A model generated the notes under the pieces. That model made no database searches. It saw nothing but the letters and a program-made list of their open reading frames with translations, and was not told the DNA's origin. This document shows positions 57,208 through 64,000 of a stretch of 64,000 bases of DNA, in pieces; positions within the stretch are counted from its first letter, which is position 1; each line of letters opens with the position of its first letter. This stretch comes from Sedimentisphaerales bacterium (lineage in GTDB: Bacteria > Planctomycetota > Phycisphaerae > Sedimentisphaerales > Anaerobacaceae). A program made the translations under genes and the position numbers. The stretch is taken from the NCBI GenBank assembly GCA_963708075.1, contig OY970194.1, positions 2,720,001-2,784,000 of the forward strand, written 5' to 3'.

Positions 57208-57376
57208 GAAACGTGGTGCACGGGCAAACGCGGATGGGTAGGTTTATCGGACGCGGCGGTATCCTGGAGCTTGTCCCATACGGGCAGGGCCTGAATTCCT
57301 TCGGCCTGGCTAAATGCCCCCGCCCGTACAGCCGAAGAACAATACGGAATCAATTTACAGATACGGGAACAGATAC

Positions 57377-57955
57377 ATGGCAAAAGGCAGAAATGTACTG
57401 ACAACCGGCGACGTGGCGAAAATCTGCAATGTCGCCCCGAGAACGGTCTCCAAGTGGTTCGATTCCGGCCAGCTCCGCGGGTATCGCATCCCAGGCAGCA
57501 AGGACCGCCGCATACCCGTCAATGAGTTGATCCGGTTCATGAAGGCCAATAATATGCCGACGGACATCCTGCCCGTGGGCAAGATCCGCGTCCTCGTCCT
57601 GGACGGCGAGAACGGCTCGAAATCCTCGGTGGTCGACGCCCTGACGGCCCGGGGCAGTTACGAGATTCAGGCCGTGTCCAACGGCTTCGACGCCGGCGCC
57701 GCCGTGCAAAGGTTCGCGCCCCACGTGATCCTGATCAACCTGCTCGTCCGAGACATCGACGCGCACGGCATCTGCAGGAGCATCCGCGGCAGCGAAGAGC
57801 ACGGCACGATCAAGATCATTGCCCTGGCCAACTGCCTGAGCCCACAGGAGGCCGCCGCCCTGATGCAAAAAGGCTTCGACGGCTATGTCTCGAATCCAAC
57901 CGACGTAATGGAAGTCGTCAAGAAGATCGAGGAAGCCACCGCGATCATCTACTGA
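57377..57955 (+). CDS. Response regulator-like protein with N-terminal excisionase-type HTH
   Basis: LTTGDVAKICNVAPRTVSKWFDSGQLRGYRIPGSKDRRIP plus a C-terminal receiver-like domain. Confidence 0.88.
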   Translation: MAKGRNVLTTGDVAKICNVAPRTVSKWFDSGQLRGYRIPGSKDRRIPVNELIRFMKANNMPTDILPVGKIRVLVLDGENGSKSSVVDALTARGSYEIQAVSNGFDAGAAVQRFAPHVILINLLVRDIDAHGICRSIRGSEEHGTIKIIALANCLSPQEAAALMQKGFDGYVSNPTDVMEVVKKIEEATAIIY

Positions 57956-58098
57956 TTGCGGACAGAGATCAGATGGCAGCCAGACACAACCTGCCGACTG
58001 GGCGACCGTGAGGCCATTCCAGCCTCCACTCCCCGGTCGTCTCGCACGTGCAGCCTATCATGCCCCCTGCCGGTCAAAAGCAGGAACGGGCCGAACGA

Positions 58099-58950
58099 TC
58101 AATAGTCCTTGTACTTTCGCAGCCACTGGGGCCAGTAATCGGGCTGAGCTCCACCGAGTCTGGTCCAGGCGCCCGATGTATCGTATTCGCGATGCCACCG
58201 CAGGGTCCACAATTCCTTAAGGCCGACGTGCCGGACCGACCAATCCGCAAAGGCAAGATTCGTCCAGCCGTTGTGCCGGTCGATACAGAACTGGTTCATC
58301 TCGCCGGCGGTCCCCTTGTCCCCCCAGCCGGAGTCCCACGGTGTCTGCATCGGCTCATCGGTGTGCTGAGGCCAAGCATCGTGCCAGGTGTTATCCCCGA
58401 GGACCGGGACCTGGTTGGGAGTCTTGAGGTTCTGTGCGGACTTCCAGAACCACTTAACGCTGCGGTTGCCGTTAGTGCGGTCCTGGAGTTGGTAGTCGAT
58501 CCAATTGTTGGTGCCGTAGCTGCCGGTCCAGTTTATTTCGGGGCCCTCGCTCGAAGCCGGGTAACGATTGCCCATCGGGTCCGTGCGCCACGCCTTGAAT
58601 GTACCGAAATCCGCAAGGCTCAAGACAACGCGGGTGGCCGTGGGACAGAACCGCATCTCGTCATCGACGTAATAGGGCCGCAGGGCATTCATCCACAAAC
58701 CATACGTGGCTGGCCGGCCCGCATTTTGCGGGTGCTGGTTGTAGCCCTGGCCTTCGGGGAAGTATCCGCTGTTATCATCGGTGTACAACTTGTATTGCAT
58801 CCCCCAGCTCCTGAGCCTGGACATGCAGGCGACGGACTGGGCCTGCTTCTTAACGCGGGACAGGGCGGGCATGAGGATCGACATCAGGAGTGCGATAATG
58901 GCGATGACCACCAGGAGTTCGATGAGGGTAAAACCCTTGCGTCGGATCAT
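58099..58950 (-). CDS. Prepilin-type N-terminal cleavage/methylation domain protein (DUF1559-like)
   Basis: KGFTLIELLVVIAIIALLMSILMPAL..ACMSRLR; C-terminal RHNGWTNLAFADWS (H-X9-DG variant). Confidence 0.92.
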   Translation of the reverse strand: MIRRKGFTLIELLVVIAIIALLMSILMPALSRVKKQAQSVACMSRLRSWGMQYKLYTDDNSGYFPEGQGYNQHPQNAGRPATYGLWMNALRPYYVDDEMRFCPTATRVVLSLADFGTFKAWRTDPMGNRYPASSEGPEINWTGSYGTNNWIDYQLQDRTNGNRSVKWFWKSAQNLKTPNQVPVLGDNTWHDAWPQHTDEPMQTPWDSGWGDKGTAGEMNQFCIDRHNGWTNLAFADWSVRHVGLKELWTLRWHREYDTSGAWTRLGGAQPDYWPQWLRKYKDY

Positions 58951-59055
58951 GGATCATTCCCTTTCCGGTGCTGCAGTTGTCGGCTGATACGATATAGGCG
59001 TCGGTATGACTTACTATATCACATGGCCGGCAGGCATGCAAGGTCCCGCCTGGCG

Positions 59056-59595
59056 TCATTTCTTGCGTTCCTGGAGCATGCGGGTCTGGAGACGGATGAG
59101 GGTCTGGGGCGTGACCGTGCGCGCGGATAGATCGCCGAGAATCACGCCGTACTTGCCATCCGGCGTCGGCCAGTACATCAGGATGGCATACTGATCGTTG
59201 AGATCCGCACGGTCGCCGCAAAAGACCACGTCCCGGCCCTGGGCGGCCAGCTCATCCCGGAATTTCGCCAACCCCGGCAGGACGTCCGCCCGATAGGCTT
59301 TTTCGCCGCCGAGAGCGTACTTCAGGAACAGCTTGCCATCCTGGTACATGTGCACGCCATCGGCGTCCCGTCCGCCGAAGAAGGCTCCGATCAGAAAGAC
59401 GGCCGCCAGGATCGCGGCGGCGGCCGCTATACGGCTGACACGCAGGTCGACGATGATGTTGATCGTGTCCATGCGGTGCGCGTAAAGCCGATGAGGTATC
59501 CGGCTCTTGATCTCCTGGGCCAGACCGGGCCTTGCCTGCTCGATCAACCGCCCGGGCAGAACCTTCAGCATTTCTTCAAGTTCTCTCTTTTCCAT
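59056..59595 (-). CDS. Putative anti-sigma factor (single TM)
   Basis: Directly downstream of the ECF sigma gene; RIAAAAAILAAVFLIGAFF TM segment. Confidence 0.65.
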   Translation of the reverse strand: MEKRELEEMLKVLPGRLIEQARPGLAQEIKSRIPHRLYAHRMDTINIIVDLRVSRIAAAAAILAAVFLIGAFFGGRDADGVHMYQDGKLFLKYALGGEKAYRADVLPGLAKFRDELAAQGRDVVFCGDRADLNDQYAILMYWPTPDGKYGVILGDLSARTVTPQTLIRLQTRMLQERKK

Positions 59596-59621
59596 AGTGG
59601 CCTTACCCGAATAGGAGAACC

Positions 59622-60248
59622 CTACAGATCGCCCATCTGTTTTCTCAGGGCTTCCAGCCCCCTGTTGAGACGGCTTTTCAGCGTCCCCTGCCGCACACCG
59701 GCAGCGTCTGCCGCCTCCGAGATCGTCAACTGCTCCATGTAGTGCAATACGATAGCCTGCCGCAGCTTGCGGGGCAGCCGGGCCACCGCGCTGCGCAGCC
59801 GCACCGATTCCTCATGCCCGCTGGCCCCATCCAGCCCATTGGGGCCGCCCAAAGGCATTTCCAGCCCCTCGGGACTGCTGGTATCCACGTCCTTGTGCCT
59901 TCGCCAGTACAGGCGCGAGACATTTCCAGCGATGCGAAAGAGCCAACCGTTCAATGCCTTGCCGTCCCGCAACTGGCCGATGTGATACCAAGCCCGCAAG
60001 AACGTCTCCTGCGTCAGGTCTTCACTGATCTGCCGGTCATGCCCGACGGCCCGCATGAACAGGTAAATCCGCTCGTAGTAACAATCTACGAGCTCTTCCG
60101 CCGCTGCATGATCGCCCCGTCTGAGCCTTCCGGCAAGCAATTCAAAGTCCATCCGGGGCGTTCCTCCTGTCAGTTCGACAGCGGCCGTTTCTCGGATAAG
60201 ATGCGCGGTTCCTGCGTTCTGTTCTGCTGCCTGGGCGTTTTTTTGCAT
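59622..60248 (-). CDS. ECF sigma-70 factor
   Basis: SEDLTQETFLRAW, WLFRIAGN, LPRKLRQAIVLHY, GTLKSRLNRG. Start at 60248 chosen from a GGAG RBS and the upstream promoter. Confidence 0.9.
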   Translation of the reverse strand: MQKNAQAAEQNAGTAHLIRETAAVELTGGTPRMDFELLAGRLRRGDHAAAEELVDCYYERIYLFMRAVGHDRQISEDLTQETFLRAWYHIGQLRDGKALNGWLFRIAGNVSRLYWRRHKDVDTSSPEGLEMPLGGPNGLDGASGHEESVRLRSAVARLPRKLRQAIVLHYMEQLTISEAADAAGVRQGTLKSRLNRGLEALRKQMGDL

Positions 60249-60272
60249 GTTCTCCACCCTGCTATGCCCTTT

Positions 60273-60301
60273 AGTATACCCGAATCGGGCCTCCGACTCA
60301 A
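60273..60301 (-). promoter_or_regulatory. Putative sigma70 promoter of the ECF operon
   Basis: TTGAGT-17 bp-TATACT on the minus strand. Confidence 0.55.
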
Positions 60302-60350
60302 CAGAGAACACACCCAAGGCGTCAGCAAGAAGGCCGAGGCCCCTCGCCCA

Positions 60351-61083
60351 AATTGGCTTTGTTTCGCACAACGCACCGGCAGTTGCCTCCCGCCTACGGT
60401 CTCCAGTCTCTGGACTGCCCTCCCAATTGGCTTTGTTTCGCACGACAGCCCTTCCGGAATTTGGCTTTGTTTCGCAGACTCGGCCTCTATTCCGCATTCC
60501 GCATTCCGCATTCAGTATTCCGCACTCCCAAGGCCCCCGGCCTGGAATTGGCTCTGTTTCGCAGAATCGCTCCTGTCTTCTTCATTCCGCATTCCGCATT
60601 CCGCACTCCGCACTCCCAGGCCCCCGACCTGGAATTGGCTTTGTTTCGCAAAATCGCCAGCCAATCATAACCCTTTTCCCACAAAGAACTTAGCGATACA
60701 CACCCGCCAAATTGGCTTTGTTTCGCAGAGTCGCTCCCGTTGTAGGGGCGGGTTTCAAACCCGCCCGTACCGCCGTAAGGCGTTCGTGGCGAGGGCGTCC
60801 CGCCCTTGTCTTCCGCCCCCAATTGGCTTTGTTTCGCAGACTCATTCACCTGCCACGCACCTTCACTCCGCATTCCGCACTCCCAGGGCCTCGACCCCAG
60901 ATTGGCTTTGTTTTGCACACCCGCCTGTGTAATCCCCTGCGGCCTACCGCCTCCAGCCTGCCCGCTGCGAATTGGCTTTGTTTCGCAGACTCGTTCATCC
61001 GCTCCCGGCCTTTCAATCCGCATTCCGCAATCCGCATTCCGCAATCCCAGGGGCCCCCGGCCCATAATTGGCTTTGTTTCACA
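60351..61083. repeat. Array of ten 18-bp direct repeats (AATTGGCTTTGTTTCGCA) with variable spacers
   Basis: Copies start at 60351, 60425, 60459, 60546, 60633, 60710, 60821, 60900, 60970 and 61066; 0-2 mismatches each. Confidence 0.92.
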
Positions 61084-61403
61084 CAACCTGGCACTCGCCG
61101 ACGGTGATGCCCGCTTGACCGGTCACGGCAAGACCCTGGGACTCTTGATTTGCGATTTGCGATCTTTGACTTTTGATATTTGACTTGTCTATCCGACCAT
61201 ATACTAAAGACGCTCATCGAGCCGGATTGTTGCAGGAATGTCTGGTAAATAGTGAACCTACTTCCAACCTCTTGTGGCCCGGTGACTTACAGTGCTCTGT
61301 CTTTGTGCATCGAACCGGGAAAACTCGCCCGCCTTCTTCATGCCTCGAATAATGAATAATGAAGACACGGCCCCCGGCCCCCTTAGTACCGTAGGACGGA
61401 AGC

Positions 61404-62093
61404 TCATTCAGGTGCGGGCGTCCCTGCGGAATTGCCCTCAGGATGCGGAGCTTCGGCGCGAGGCTGAGACGTTGGAGATGATGTACAAGGAGTTGCTGGA
61501 AGAGGCTGGCCAAGTCGGAACTCCTCGACCTGTCGGACGAATCTCTGCATGTCGCGTCGGCTGGCCTTGAACGTGTCGCCTACCATCGTCGTGGCATAGG
61601 CTCGGCCTATCCTCGGTTCTTCCGGGATGAGGGGCGGTTGGGCCCGAAGGAGGACCGGGTTGAACCAGATCATCGCGCTGTGTTGTGGACCGACCTCTCG
61701 CTGCCACTCCAAGCCCTTGCGGACAGGTTCCTGTTGACAGAGGGTGACTGAGTGAAATTCTCTTCGTTGCAGAGACCAGACAGCCTTGCTTTCCCGTATG
61801 CGTTTGGGAGCAAACTTGGTGATTGCAGTGATCACTCGCCATCTCCATCCCGGCAGGAATCCGACGGTCGCTCCGACTACAGGCACATGCCCAACGTTGC
61901 AGACTTCTATGATGCCGCGCCATGTCGTGACGTGTTTCCCATCCTTCACTTCACCCATACAATGGAGACTGGGTCGAACGACGAGGTGCGGGCGGCTCTT
62001 GTCCCGCTGGTGAAGGTAGTTGAGGATGCCCAGCGCGAGGCCGGACAAGCCCGACACCGCACCGATTATCGCAGTGACTTCCGTAAGGATCAT
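61404..62093 (-). CDS. Tandem paralog A: N-terminal TM hypothetical protein (3' end uncertain)
   Basis: GAVSGLSGLALGILNY..RPHLVVR..CNVGHVPV..PQHSAM..GRAY..GDTFKASRRDM. Confidence 0.75.
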   Translation of the reverse strand: MILTEVTAIIGAVSGLSGLALGILNYLHQRDKSRPHLVVRPSLHCMGEVKDGKHVTTWRGIIEVCNVGHVPVVGATVGFLPGWRWRVITAITKFAPKRIRESKAVWSLQRREFHSVTLCQQEPVRKGLEWQREVGPQHSAMIWFNPVLLRAQPPLIPEEPRIGRAYATTMVGDTFKASRRDMQRFVRQVEEFRLGQPLPATPCTSSPTSQPRAEAPHPEGNSAGTPAPE

Positions 62094-62105
62094 AAGCAGT
62101 ACTTC

Positions 62106-62134
62106 ATGATAAATGCGATCACCGTCTTCTGCAA
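62106..62134 (-). promoter_or_regulatory. Sigma70 promoter of paralog A
   Basis: TTGCAG-17-TATCAT-12 nt-ATG. Confidence 0.7.
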
Positions 62135-62147
62135 GGCCAGAGACGGG

Positions 62148-62642
62148 CTAAGTCGAGGCTGCTTTGCGCATCTTGGCGAATACCCGCGTGTCGCGTCGGC
62201 TGGCCTTGAACTTGTCGCCCACAATACTCTGGACGCAAGCGCGGCCCAGTCGGCGACCTTCTGGCAACTCCTCCGGGCTAAAGTCAAATCGCCCAGTGGC
62301 GGCATGCTGGGGCTTGAGTTCTTCATCCCACCACTTGACGCCGTTGAACGGCGTGAGTATGAACTGAGGCACATTCTTCTCTTGCCTGCGCTTGCGTAGG
62401 AACTCAATGGTCCCACGCACCGTTACCGGCACTTGCCCCACGTTGCAGATACTTACGATAGCGACATTCTTCTCTTGCTGCGGTATATGGGAGCCCCGAA
62501 GGCAAGATATGTCATACAGCCGAACCACAAGACGCGGGCGGCTGGTGTCCCGCTGATGCACGTAGTTGAGGATGCCCAGCACGAGACCGGACACGCCTGA
62601 CACCACGCCGACCATGATCCCGATGGCTTGGAGAGTACTCAT
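62148..62642 (-). CDS. Tandem paralog B
   Basis: GVVSGVSGLVLGILNY..RPRLVVR..CNVGQVPV..ELKPQHAA..GDKFKASRRD..AAST*. Confidence 0.8.
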   Translation of the reverse strand: MSTLQAIGIMVGVVSGVSGLVLGILNYVHQRDTSRPRLVVRLYDISCLRGSHIPQQEKNVAIVSICNVGQVPVTVRGTIEFLRKRRQEKNVPQFILTPFNGVKWWDEELKPQHAATGRFDFSPEELPEGRRLGRACVQSIVGDKFKASRRDTRVFAKMRKAAST

Positions 62643-62654
62643 ACGCAGTATCGT

Positions 62655-62683
62655 ATGATAAACAGACTGAATGTCTTCTGCAA
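62655..62683 (-). promoter_or_regulatory. Sigma70 promoter of paralog B
   Basis: TTGCAG-17-TATCAT-12 nt-ATG. Confidence 0.7.
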
Positions 62684-62708
62684 GGCCAACCGGTTCAGAT
62701 ATTCGGTG

Positions 62709-63221
62709 TCAGCGTCTTTCTCTGGAAGACGCTGCCTTGCGGGACTTGGCGAACCTTCGCATTTCGCGTCGGCTGGCCTTGAAGTCCTCGCCAACGGCAC
62801 TCGTGACGTAAGCTCGGCCCAGTTTGCGGCCTTCCGGTAGCTCGTCCGGACCAAAATTGAACAGTAGCATGGCCCTCTGTTGTGGCTTGAGTTCCCCAGG
62901 TAAGAGGATCTCGTTGGACATGGCCTCACAGAGCGGTTCCGGTGTGAATATGAGAGAATGTGCCTTCTGCCCGCGCTTAGGGAGGAACTTGATGACCGCA
63001 CCCATCATCACGGGCACCTGCCCTACGTTGCAGATATCTACGTGCACAACGGTCTTCTTTTGCGGGTTGTTGGGAGCAACAACCCCGGACATGTCGAATA
63101 GCCGAACCACGATGCGTGGACGGGTGGTGTCTCGTTGGTGCAGGTAATTAAGGATACCCAGTACAAGGCCGGATACACCTGACACCGCACCGACTATCGC
63201 AGTGACTTCAGTAATGCTCAT
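62709..63221 (-). CDS. Tandem paralog C
   Basis: GAVSGVSGLVLGILNY..RPRIVVR..CNVGQVPV..GELKPQQRAM..GEDFKASRREM. Confidence 0.8.
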   Translation of the reverse strand: MSITEVTAIVGAVSGVSGLVLGILNYLHQRDTTRPRIVVRLFDMSGVVAPNNPQKKTVVHVDICNVGQVPVMMGAVIKFLPKRGQKAHSLIFTPEPLCEAMSNEILLPGELKPQQRAMLLFNFGPDELPEGRKLGRAYVTSAVGEDFKASRREMRRFAKSRKAASSRERR

Positions 63222-63233
63222 AAGCAGTGTTTC

Positions 63234-63262
63234 ATCATAAATGCGATTATCCTGTCCTGCAA
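63234..63262 (-). promoter_or_regulatory. Sigma70 promoter of paralog C
   Basis: TTGCAG-17-TATGAT-12 nt-ATG. Confidence 0.7.
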
Positions 63263-63275
63263 AGCCAGAGGCGGG

Positions 63276-63769
63276 CTAAGTCGAGGCTGCCTCCAACTGC
63301 TTGGCCACCCAGCGCATTTCGCGTCGGCTGACCTTGAATCTATCGCCGATGGCACTCTCGACGTAAACTCGGCGCACCTTGCGTCCTTCCAGGAGGTCGG
63401 CCAACCTAAAGTCAAATTCCAGCATCGCGGCGTGCTGCGGCTTGAGTTCCCCCGGCCATGCGGTGACGTCATTGTACGGCTTGGGTGATATCGTCATCGG
63501 GGATGTCTGGCCGGCCTTAGTAGGAAGGAACCCGATACCCTCGACCATCATCACTGGCACCTGCCCCACGTTGCAGACCTCCACGAGGCCGGGGTACCTC
63601 TCGTCCTTCGTGCTCTTGGAGGCAAAACAACTGGGCATGATGTAAAACCGAACCATGATGCGCGGCGCGTGCTGACCCGCCGCTCCCAGTAGTTCACGAT
63701 GCCCAGCACGACGCCGGACACACCCGACACCACGCCGACGATAATCCCGATGGCTTGGAGAGTACTCAT
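63276..63769 (-). CDS. Tandem paralog D (frameshift near 63665)
   Basis: MSTLQAIGIIVGVVSGVSGVVLGIVNY (in ORF 63551..63973) joins ORF 63276..63656 (CNVGQVPV..GELKPQHAAM..GDRFKVSRREM..AAST*). Confidence 0.75.
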
Positions 63770-63781
63770 ACGCGGTGTTGT

Positions 63782-63810
63782 ATGATAATCTCGCTCGCTT
63801 CTTCGTGCAA
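63782..63810 (-). promoter_or_regulatory. Sigma70 promoter of paralog D
   Basis: TTGCAC-17-TATCAT-12 nt-ATG. Confidence 0.7.
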
Positions 63811-63877
63811 GGCCGAAAGGAACGGACTTGGGGTCAACTCGTGACACTTGACAGACGGGGTCGCATTCGAGGAGGAG

Positions 63878-63948
63878 CGCCGGCAAGATGCCGGCGCGAC
63901 GCAAGGCCGGGACGGCCTCGCCACGAAAACGCCTTACGGCGTCACTAC
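63878..63948. repeat. Cluster of REP-like palindromes
   Basis: cgccggcaagatgccggcg; aggccgggacggcct; acgccttacggcgtcactac (GTAG tetranucleotide on the minus strand). Confidence 0.65.
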
Positions 63949-64000
63949 AAACAGGAATATTAGGGCCAGCCACCGAGTTCTGCCTTCTCTTATGTCGTTT

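Follow-up and report, generated by a model that had tools for sequence, protein, structure and literature searches.

Why does an 18-nucleotide word recur ten times, always in the same orientation, at positions 60351-61083 of the window, a 64,000-nucleotide stretch of the Sedimentisphaerales bacterium (Planctomycetota) contig OY970194.1? A sequence-only reading had described the region as a repeat-spacer array of a kind other than CRISPR (clustered regularly interspaced short palindromic repeats), its 18-mer being a conserved protein-binding, recombination or RNA-processing site. Our answer involves a small hypothetical gene, X, of which only a stub is left at this place: tentatively, with a probability of about 40%, we read the array as the 3' end-motif of a decayed X cassette, present in multiplied form and serving as a multivalent single-stranded RNA recognition platform.

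A ten-copy array among some forty

A search of the window for AATTGGCTTTGTTTCGCA on both strands, with up to 3 mismatches allowed, returns exactly 10 copies, all on the plus strand between 60351 and 61083 and every one with at most 2 mismatches (six are exact, three carry 1 mismatch and one carries 2); chance would give 0.04 copies and 0/100 shuffles reach 10. The coordinates leave 56, 16, 69, 69, 59, 93, 61, 52 and 78 nt between successive copies, so that the repeat number, orientation and spacer lengths of the sequence-only reading are borne out. The strand on which it presented them is the opposite of the meaningful one: because the leader of X sits on the 61084+ side and because the motif shares the strand of X in other genomes, the working strand of the array is the minus strand, on which the array is laid out as follows.

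60351..61083, functional reading minus (TGCGAAACAAAGCCAATT): whole array, 10 motif copies and 9 spacers
60351..60368, minus: motif copy 10 in cassette direction, exact
60425..60442, minus: motif copy 9, exact
60459..60476, minus: motif copy 8, 1 mismatch
60546..60563, minus: motif copy 7, 1 mismatch
60633..60650, minus: motif copy 6, exact
60710..60727, minus: motif copy 5, exact
60821..60838, minus: motif copy 4, exact
60900..60917, minus: motif copy 3, 2 mismatches
60970..60987, minus: motif copy 2, exact
61066..61083, minus: motif copy 1, 1 mismatch, TGTGAAAC variant, holds the stop codon of the X stub

Independently built Logan contigs (run X1) tile 59600-60388, 60412-60673 and 60881-61700 with 0 differences, bearing in mind that run X1 may be the source sample and that 60674-60880 lies outside the listed zero-difference pieces. 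Since these contigs match without differences, the array is not the product of one assembler, and an assembly artefact, which the sequence-only reading had considered, is ruled out for most of its length. Runs X2-X4 hold, in a small share, only related modules and joints of uncertain origin.

The scale is also larger than in the sequence-only reading, where neither the other arrays nor gene X figured. Genome-wide mapping of the 18-mer, a check which that reading had proposed, gives 288 copies (no more than 3 mismatches) in 56 clusters, 33 of them with at least 4 copies, over 7,515,525 bases of 60% G+C; the window array is one among about 40. All copies within a cluster are direct and in a single orientation, an X gene or its leader recurs alongside many of the clusters, and only 5 solo copies lie outside arrays. 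In the information profile, the 18 nt form a block with sharp edges, behind which about 8 nt more are weakly conserved.

CRISPR arrays combine repeats of about 23-55 nt with near-uniform, unique spacers. All that the present arrays have in common with them is that repeats alternate with spacers and that a promoter-bearing leader flanks one side, whereas the repeat is 18 nt long, the spacers (15-357 nt) are non-uniform and belong to families that are shared between arrays, the motif is single-copy after X in most genomes, and PF01867 (Cas1) has 0 matches in this 7.5-Mb genome, a single contig with a completeness of 92.76%. An adaptive, CRISPR-like array devoid of nearby cas genes is in our view next to impossible, and the sequence-only reading had rightly set the repeat apart from CRISPR repeats.

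The array as a coding repeat was rejected: unit periods (105, 63, 80) fall in all three phases, stops are present and no protein is conserved. In a variant of this idea the motif would be the translation start of tandem mini-open reading frames (mini-ORFs; RTG-CRA-AAC-RAA-SCC-AAT, that is M-R/Q-N-K/E-A/P-N), acting through a short peptide or through ribosome loading. Indeed, the base preceding the motif is A, G or T in 51/59 first copies, positions -11 to -7 are purine-rich and Shine-Dalgarno-like, the frame is open in AT-rich Planctomycetota with its repeats in register (MQNKPNLL..QMNV..LTKDYEN), and three alphaproteobacterial loci have a 30-codon ORF in common. Mini-ORFs nevertheless seem very unlikely, given that the three variable positions of the motif are all non-synonymous while third positions are invariant, that the ORFs opened at the motif vary in length between 1 and 709 codons and encode no conserved protein, that second and later copies often lack a start, that the TGTGAAAC variant is a start-stop, and that the unit periods occupy all three phases.

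Two further observations concern the architecture of the arrays. Two short ones (arrays 57 and 58 of genome G000, 4778929-4780455) are separated by a 393-aa ORF which, judged by eye only, we take to be transposase-like; this suggests a single array split by insertion. The X-bearing arrays 9, 18, 23, 30, 32, 58 and 73 of G000 end in a shared element of ~150 nt (for example in locus L007, after 2613) that contains a tRNA T-arm-like GCGGYTCGAATCCGCC; ARAGORN finds no tRNA or tmRNA there (L007).

Gene X, its leaders and the motif behind it

The high-coordinate flank of many arrays is homologous between loci and carries a gene on the opposite strand, aimed into the array. This gene is X, a multi-copy hypothetical gene for an all-helical protein of ~170-190 aa; tblastn finds 9 genomic copies, all of which (9/9) are oriented into an array that begins 46-213 nt away. 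An X cassette runs along one strand from a promoter through a 5' untranslated region (5'UTR) with short tandem repeats to X, then to 3'-flanking heptamer runs and hairpins, and finally to TGCGAAACAAAGCCAATT. In the window, the upstream part of such a cassette can be recognised, with a promoter-like pair of the extracytoplasmic function (ECF) sigma type:

61079..61126, minus: X stub, GTG start (61126), 15 codons (MTGQAGITVGECQVV), TGA stop inside motif copy 1
61147..61186, minus: 5'UTR short tandem repeats of the X leader, GATTTGC x2.4 and TTTGACT x3.1
61208..61234, minus: ECF-sigma-type promoter-like pair TGCAAC-16 nt-CGTCT, read from the sequence
61146..61310, minus: class-1 leader of X cassettes, conserved element of ~165 nt (nhmmer; BLAST extent 61096-61381)
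61361..61375, minus: terminator-like hairpin after the upstream gene (61404-62093, minus)

The 15-codon stub resembles the N-terminus of X, and homologous stubs as well as full X genes follow the same leader elsewhere. The TGCAAC-16-CGTCT pair is presumably of the ECF-sigma type. Leaders and arrays are tightly associated: a strict regular expression for the window-type leader hits 7 genome sites, 7/7 beside arrays and in the right orientation, and nhmmer finds 21 class-1 matches, 19 of them strong (E <=6.3e-18), which precede an array on the cassette strand in 19/19 cases (18 within 27-793 nt, one 1509 nt from array 44). A class-2 leader, present in 7 copies, precedes arrays on the cassette strand in 7/7; what had looked like Sigma-54 promoters at arrays 0 and 17 is read as sigma-70-like variants of this class. 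Tallied across searches, a recognised leader or an X gene lies beside 28/38 arrays with at least 3 copies. Upstream of X in other taxa, a pattern search for ECF-type promoters had 3 hits among 97 loci, a count given no weight here because some of those loci were read in the wrong orientation. In the X leaders of loci L016-L100, from many taxa, the 5'UTR consists of runs of 7-nt units (AAATCGT, AAATCAA and others) right before GGAGG-ATG, so that seven-base runs flank X on both sides.

The association of motif and X extends well beyond this genome. An exact 14-mer core of the motif occurs in 10-305 copies in 9/23 other genomes of the genus, is absent from 8/23, and is found 0 or 1 time in each of 17 genomes outside the genus; X is multi-copy in 21/23 of the other genus genomes, including genomes without the exact 14-mer. 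With up to 4 mismatches, the motif follows X on X's strand at 22/24 loci sampled within the genus and in two further families, and the 2/24 negative loci have less than 430 nt of downstream sequence. X has at least 752 relatives in databases and more than 570 loci in reference genomes. From at least 578 relatives, a scan of reference genomes with the X alignment gave a public set of 80 loci, 74 of which have at least 400 nt downstream: in 47/74 of them TGCGAAACAAAGCCAATT (no more than 3 mismatches) follows X on its strand inside an 800-nt limit, at a distance of 20-740 nt, and the 800 nt preceding X contain it, on whichever strand, in 0/71 control loci. Positive loci are 43/53 of those labelled Planctomycetota and 4/21 of the others, namely three from Alphaproteobacteria/Rhodospirillales metagenome-assembled genomes (MAGs) and one unclassified. 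From Planctomycetota to Alphaproteobacteria the first copy keeps the same polarity relative to X, its cross-taxon logo is AT-Y-R / TGC-R-AAAC-R-AA-S-CCAATT / Y-S-S, and AAAC, AA and CCAA are invariant in 59/59 loci. Most genomes have one to three copies after X; multiplication to 4-13 copies is seen at ~40 loci here, and some congeners have amplified the motif too.

What X might be is not readily suggested by homology: Pfam (E up to 1), NCBIfam and a PDB profile search give no match, and Foldseek, VIA-align and ESM Atlas give nothing informative, their best rows being generic helical hairpins (Z <=8.4). Among 89 ORFs scanned over 45 X loci of other genomes no family recurs as a partner and no ParA-like gene is found. 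PF05635 genes, of which the genome has four to six, are found at other places, and none of the four that pass the Pfam cut-off has the motif within 1.5 kb. Public X protein models (P0012, P0020, P0045, P0098, P0113 and others) run on through the downstream motif repeats, the bogus C-terminal strings CETKPI, AKQSQ and RNKAN being the motif in its three frames. This is a warning to gene callers: X genes are routinely over-extended through arrays, which leaves bogus C-terminal peptides in public protein sets.

Known RNA families also occur near X. An nhaA-I riboswitch (RF03057, 49.2 bits against a gathering threshold of 37, E 5.8e-8) is found at L007:840-895, minus strand (G000:C1 ~940268-940323), upstream of the X gene on the opposite strand. 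At L041:2211-2261, 240 nt upstream of X, Acido-Lenti-1 (RF01687) matches just below gathering (35.3 versus 37 bits), and X leaders of several AT-rich Planctomycetota resemble this match, with CUAAUUAUAG and a hairpin. Judging by this resemblance, what Rfam lists as the small RNA Acido-Lenti-1 may represent the 5' end of X cassettes together with their promoter.

Spacers, constraint and the locus in relatives

The spacers of the window array are modular:

60477..60545, minus: spacer 3, heptamer-run module (ATTCCGC units on plus, GGAATGC on minus) and GC hairpin (Tandem Repeats Finder, 60489-60528), member of the spacer family with 34 units in 19 arrays
60564..60632, minus: spacer 4, heptamer-run module and hairpin CCAGGCCCCCGACCTGG (Tandem Repeats Finder, spacer families)
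60651..60709, minus: spacer 5, AT-rich module, AAGTTCTTTGTGGGAAAAGGGTTATG on the minus strand
60728..60820, minus: spacer 6, GTAG-type repetitive extragenic palindromic (REP) hairpin GTAGGGGCGGGTTTCAAACCCGCCC and GTGGCGAGG hairpin
60839..60899, minus: spacer 7, heptamer-run module
60988..61065, minus: spacer 9, heptamer-run module

Tandem Repeats Finder recovers the heptamer runs announced by the sequence-only reading at 60489-60528, 60583-60616, 60864-60883 and 61014-61047, and the GTAG hairpin and the AT-rich module it described are both visible in the sequence. Genome-wide there are 248 spacers of 15-357 nt (median 60), and 111/248 belong to one of 14 families, each represented in more than one array. 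The four largest are heptamer runs with a GC hairpin (34 units in 19 arrays), a linked group of 18 units in which runs of the CACTTCAAAC type occur with hairpins that resemble REPs (for example GTAGTGACGCC), a 69-nt GGGTGGCAGCGTCAAGCG module (17 units) and a GGGTGGGC hairpin family (15 units). Comparing spacers with the genome, another check proposed beforehand, thus returns families shared between arrays, some of them genome-wide repeats. That the array gathers repeat families of the genome holds for some spacers: for three GTAG-type hairpins, 57, 34 and 52 copies were counted beyond the arrays, the two hairpin families of spacer 6 are mostly extra-array (7 copies inside against 57 outside, and 3 against 7), and 49/67 ATTCCGC-type runs lie outside arrays. 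The 18 in-array runs all have the polarity of the 18-mer.

This polarity, and the GGA that minus-strand runs offer every 7 nt, raise the possibility that arrays are CsrA-type sponges acting through their heptamer modules, (GGAAUGC)n on the minus strand, with the 18-mer as a mere spacer or boundary. The genome has a single CsrA gene (G000:C1:1009819-1009974), heptamer modules make up 34/248 spacers in 19 arrays, 18/18 in-array runs share the motif's polarity and the arrays have their own promoter-like leaders. We hold such sponges to be very improbable, as 214/248 spacers are not heptamer modules, 49/67 runs are extra-array, the heptamers that follow X in other genomes (GAACTAT, ACTTCAA) have no GGA, and the conserved element is the 18-mer, which has none either. 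Heptamer modules also end in a GC hairpin directly before the 18-mer and, read on the plus strand, a GC hairpin followed by U-rich AAUUGGCUUUGUUU could be an intrinsic terminator that halts transcription running against the cassette. One such site is called at 60616-60632 plus tail, but terminators are not enriched (4 found versus 3.2 expected), many units (those with 16-nt spacers or the AT-rich module) have no hairpin before the motif, and the conservation of the sequence across phyla goes far beyond what a U-tract needs; we give this explanation hardly any credence.

The 18-mer itself is better conserved than its surroundings. In units with homologous spacers, the spacers are 55-81% identical and the flanking 18-mers 85-91%; this difference, together with the sharp information boundaries, argues that the motif is under selection, and the sequence comparison supports the view that it is selectively kept, under stronger constraint than its surroundings. 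Of the earlier claim of a conserved binding, recombination or RNA-processing site, it is the conservation that these data support.

Constraint bears directly on the possibility that arrays are selfish or neutral repeat clusters, the motif being the terminal repeat of hairpin elements (of the type of REPs or of miniature inverted-repeat transposable elements, MITEs) that pile up and decay beside X, as in clusters of bacterial interspersed mosaic elements, and the copy number being functionless. Several observations would fit. In L020-type loci, inverted and direct copies of the motif bracket complementary heptamer arms and form one long hairpin reminiscent of an element with terminal inverted repeats, an arrangement found in several genomes; spacers include genome-wide REP and heptamer families; the genome has 13 matches to IS200/RAYT-like (REP-associated tyrosine transposase, Y1_Tnp) genes; amplification is patchy within the genus (at least 10 14-mers in 9/23 genomes, none in 8/23); and X with its array is present or absent at one orthologous locus. 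No replication-strand bias of the arrays, as for IS200/IS605-type elements, was seen. On the other hand, the motif is far better conserved than homologous spacers, across phyla X is followed, always at the same place, by a single copy or a few, no more than 5 solo copies occur away from arrays in this genome, in-array copies are all direct and none inverted, and the sites ahead of DUF1015, HMGL-like and S46 peptidase genes that this genome shares with other MAGs suggest stable inheritance. We regard selfish or neutral clusters as unlikely overall, without being far-fetched.

The locus in relatives indicates where the window array comes from. Downstream of it lie the following features:

60273..60301, minus: sigma-70-like promoter TTGAGT-17-TATACT, between array and ECF sigma gene
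59622..60161, minus: ECF sigma factor gene, next after the array on the same strand (Pfam Sigma70_r2 and Sigma70_r4_2)

The ECF sigma gene belongs to a genus-conserved block (57314-60161, minus; ~67-69% DNA identity) in which it is followed by a 179-aa gene that has no Pfam match, a putative anti-sigma, and by an N_methyl pseudopilin-like gene; a response regulator gene with an HTH_17 domain adjoins the block on the plus strand. Comparing this locus across relatives had been proposed with the first description, and the comparison is informative: in G019 an intact X and three motif copies stand ahead of this operon, in G005 one motif copy is visible before the contig runs out, and in G011, G014 and G004 the ~1.5 kb upstream hold neither X nor motif. 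Because the orthologous locus of G019 has intact X and motifs, the window array derives, on comparative grounds, from an X cassette that lost its X while its motif unit was multiplied; by the same comparison, the cassette is gained or lost between species. Here as in other MAGs, X or an array also precedes genes for DUF1015, HMGL-like and Peptidase_S46 proteins, which suggests long residence and stable inheritance at some sites. Other genes behind arrays are diverse (serine hydroxymethyltransferase, EF-G-like, TypA, ClpX, amidotransferase, a Cys/Met pyridoxal phosphate enzyme and others) and, according to a crude gene model, mostly co-oriented with the cassette.

Weighing a possible multivalent RNA platform

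How might such an array work? Under our favoured reading, arrays would have grown by unequal recombination or slippage between motif copies, and also by insertion of REP-type and heptamer hairpin repeats. Transcription from the cassette promoter would proceed through the array on the minus strand, and the A-rich, G-poor motif would be a single-stranded RNA site for a sequence-specific protein, X being the obvious candidate. Displayed many times between structured spacers, it would turn the array RNA into a sponge or scaffold for multivalent binding that stops just before the next gene's own promoter. We favour a transcribed single-stranded site because of the fixed polarity relative to X, the constraint, the predicted unpairedness and the promoter-bearing leaders. 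On the cassette strand, where the motif is A-rich and G-poor, its predicted unpaired probability is 0.55 versus 0.36 for the spacers, a contrast that is in part a composition effect and that is seen in 31/31 arrays; the motif is also predicted to be more unpaired on the cassette strand than on the other strand in 31/31 arrays. Rfam 15 has no match (E up to 1) in 58000-64000 and none on the motif in 20 other loci.

A number of points weigh against this reading. (i), none of the RNA sequencing runs checked for the window locus contains it, and 10/38 arrays have no leader recognised by the models used. (ii), X is a candidate ligand whose binding we infer from the arrangement of the loci; its structural model is moderate (pLDDT, predicted local distance difference test, 74.6; a long helical hairpin in a basic protein) and yields no family and no informative fold match. 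(iii), the motif is not found at X loci of Acidobacteriota with up to 3 mismatches. (iv), we know of no genome with ~40 sponge-like loci, which would be unprecedented. (v), an inverted copy lies downstream of X in 9/74 loci, 100-300 nt before the direct copy, and the AT-rich module carries an operator-like dyad; inverted copies and dyad fit a double-stranded DNA site at least as well.

The latter points lead to the alternative that the motif is an asymmetric double-stranded DNA site for X or for a host protein, forming clusters of the iteron or centromere type, or roadblocks or insulators between promoters. Both motif orientations are indeed found after X in 9/74 loci, and the AT-rich module reads, between two motif copies, as a dyad TAA-N3-CTTT...AAAG-N3-TTA. 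This module (spacer 5) is kept between two motif copies in many genomes, and its alignment over 24 units (G000 and 14 other loci) has invariant AAG..T columns; RNAalifold on the motif/AT-rich module/motif unit, the most conserved across taxa, predicts 0 pairs and no consensus structure, which suits an unstructured RNA site as well as a DNA site. In addition, the window array stops 50 nt before the sigma-70-like promoter, and nucleotides are invariant even at would-be synonymous positions. Against a duplex site, the first copy always has one polarity relative to X across phyla, which such a site does not need, the 89 X neighbours include no ParA-like or other recurrent partner, and array periods show no obvious helical phasing among the genome's arrays. 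A DNA site is thus a serious but rather unlikely explanation.

In kind, the array resembles known arrangements, namely mosaic clusters of repeats, sponge RNAs with many sites, and arrays of sites next to the gene whose product binds them, without coinciding with any of them. Bacterial interspersed mosaic elements (BIMEs) are clusters of REP palindromes and other short motifs in enterobacterial intergenic regions. Like them, the arrays are extragenic mosaics in which a short recurrent sequence alternates with small repeat modules, and GTAG-type REPs and IS200/RAYT-like genes are present; unlike them, the recurrent unit is a non-palindromic 18-mer in a single, non-alternating orientation per array, linked to a single gene family and to leaders that carry a promoter, and conserved as a single copy across phyla. 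Sponge RNAs such as CsrB/RsmZ have many GGA sites, typically in hairpin loops, and CrcZ has several A-rich sites. The arrays are similar in that a short, predicted-unstructured motif is repeated between hairpins behind a promoter-like leader and is conserved while spacers drift; they differ in their number (~40 loci per genome versus few), in their motif, in their derivation from the 3' flank of a protein gene and in being known from sequence alone. With respect to CsrB/RsmZ in particular, a CsrA gene is present but GGA occurs only in the heptamer modules (34/248 spacers) and is absent from the 18-mer. Plasmid centromeres (sopC, parC) and iterons are tandem sites beside the gene of their binding protein, and here too direct repeats of one site lie next to a gene for a small helical, basic protein; however, no partition ATPase or replication gene recurs among the 89 X neighbours, and the arrays are chromosomal, spread over dozens of loci and built with long, variable spacers. 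Finally, as in heptamer-armed S23p (PF05635) elements akin to the intervening sequences of 23S rRNA, 7-nt runs including GGAATGC flank a small helical gene and gene-less copies exist, but X, which matches nothing in Pfam up to E = 1, is not a PF05635 protein. In the literature searched, neither four 13-mers taken from the motif nor six peptide words of X have a match, and the cross-phylum pair of X and motif appears undescribed.

If our reading holds, one 18-base word links hundreds of unexplained intergenic repeats of Planctomycetota, a widespread hypothetical family and the 7-base runs around small helical genes, and X with a defined 18-nt RNA or DNA site is a directly testable pair. A bolder proposal, which we consider doubtful and which likewise builds on sequence comparison, is that X and the motif form an unrecognised protein-nucleic-acid pair whose site would have expanded into ~40 promoter-driven multivalent RNAs, a genome-wide ribonucleoprotein layer. 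Were this true, the pair would span Planctomycetota to Alphaproteobacteria and the layer would have no described counterpart; ECF sigma factors may then regulate the array RNAs, and the arrays may couple stress signals to the housekeeping genes behind them.

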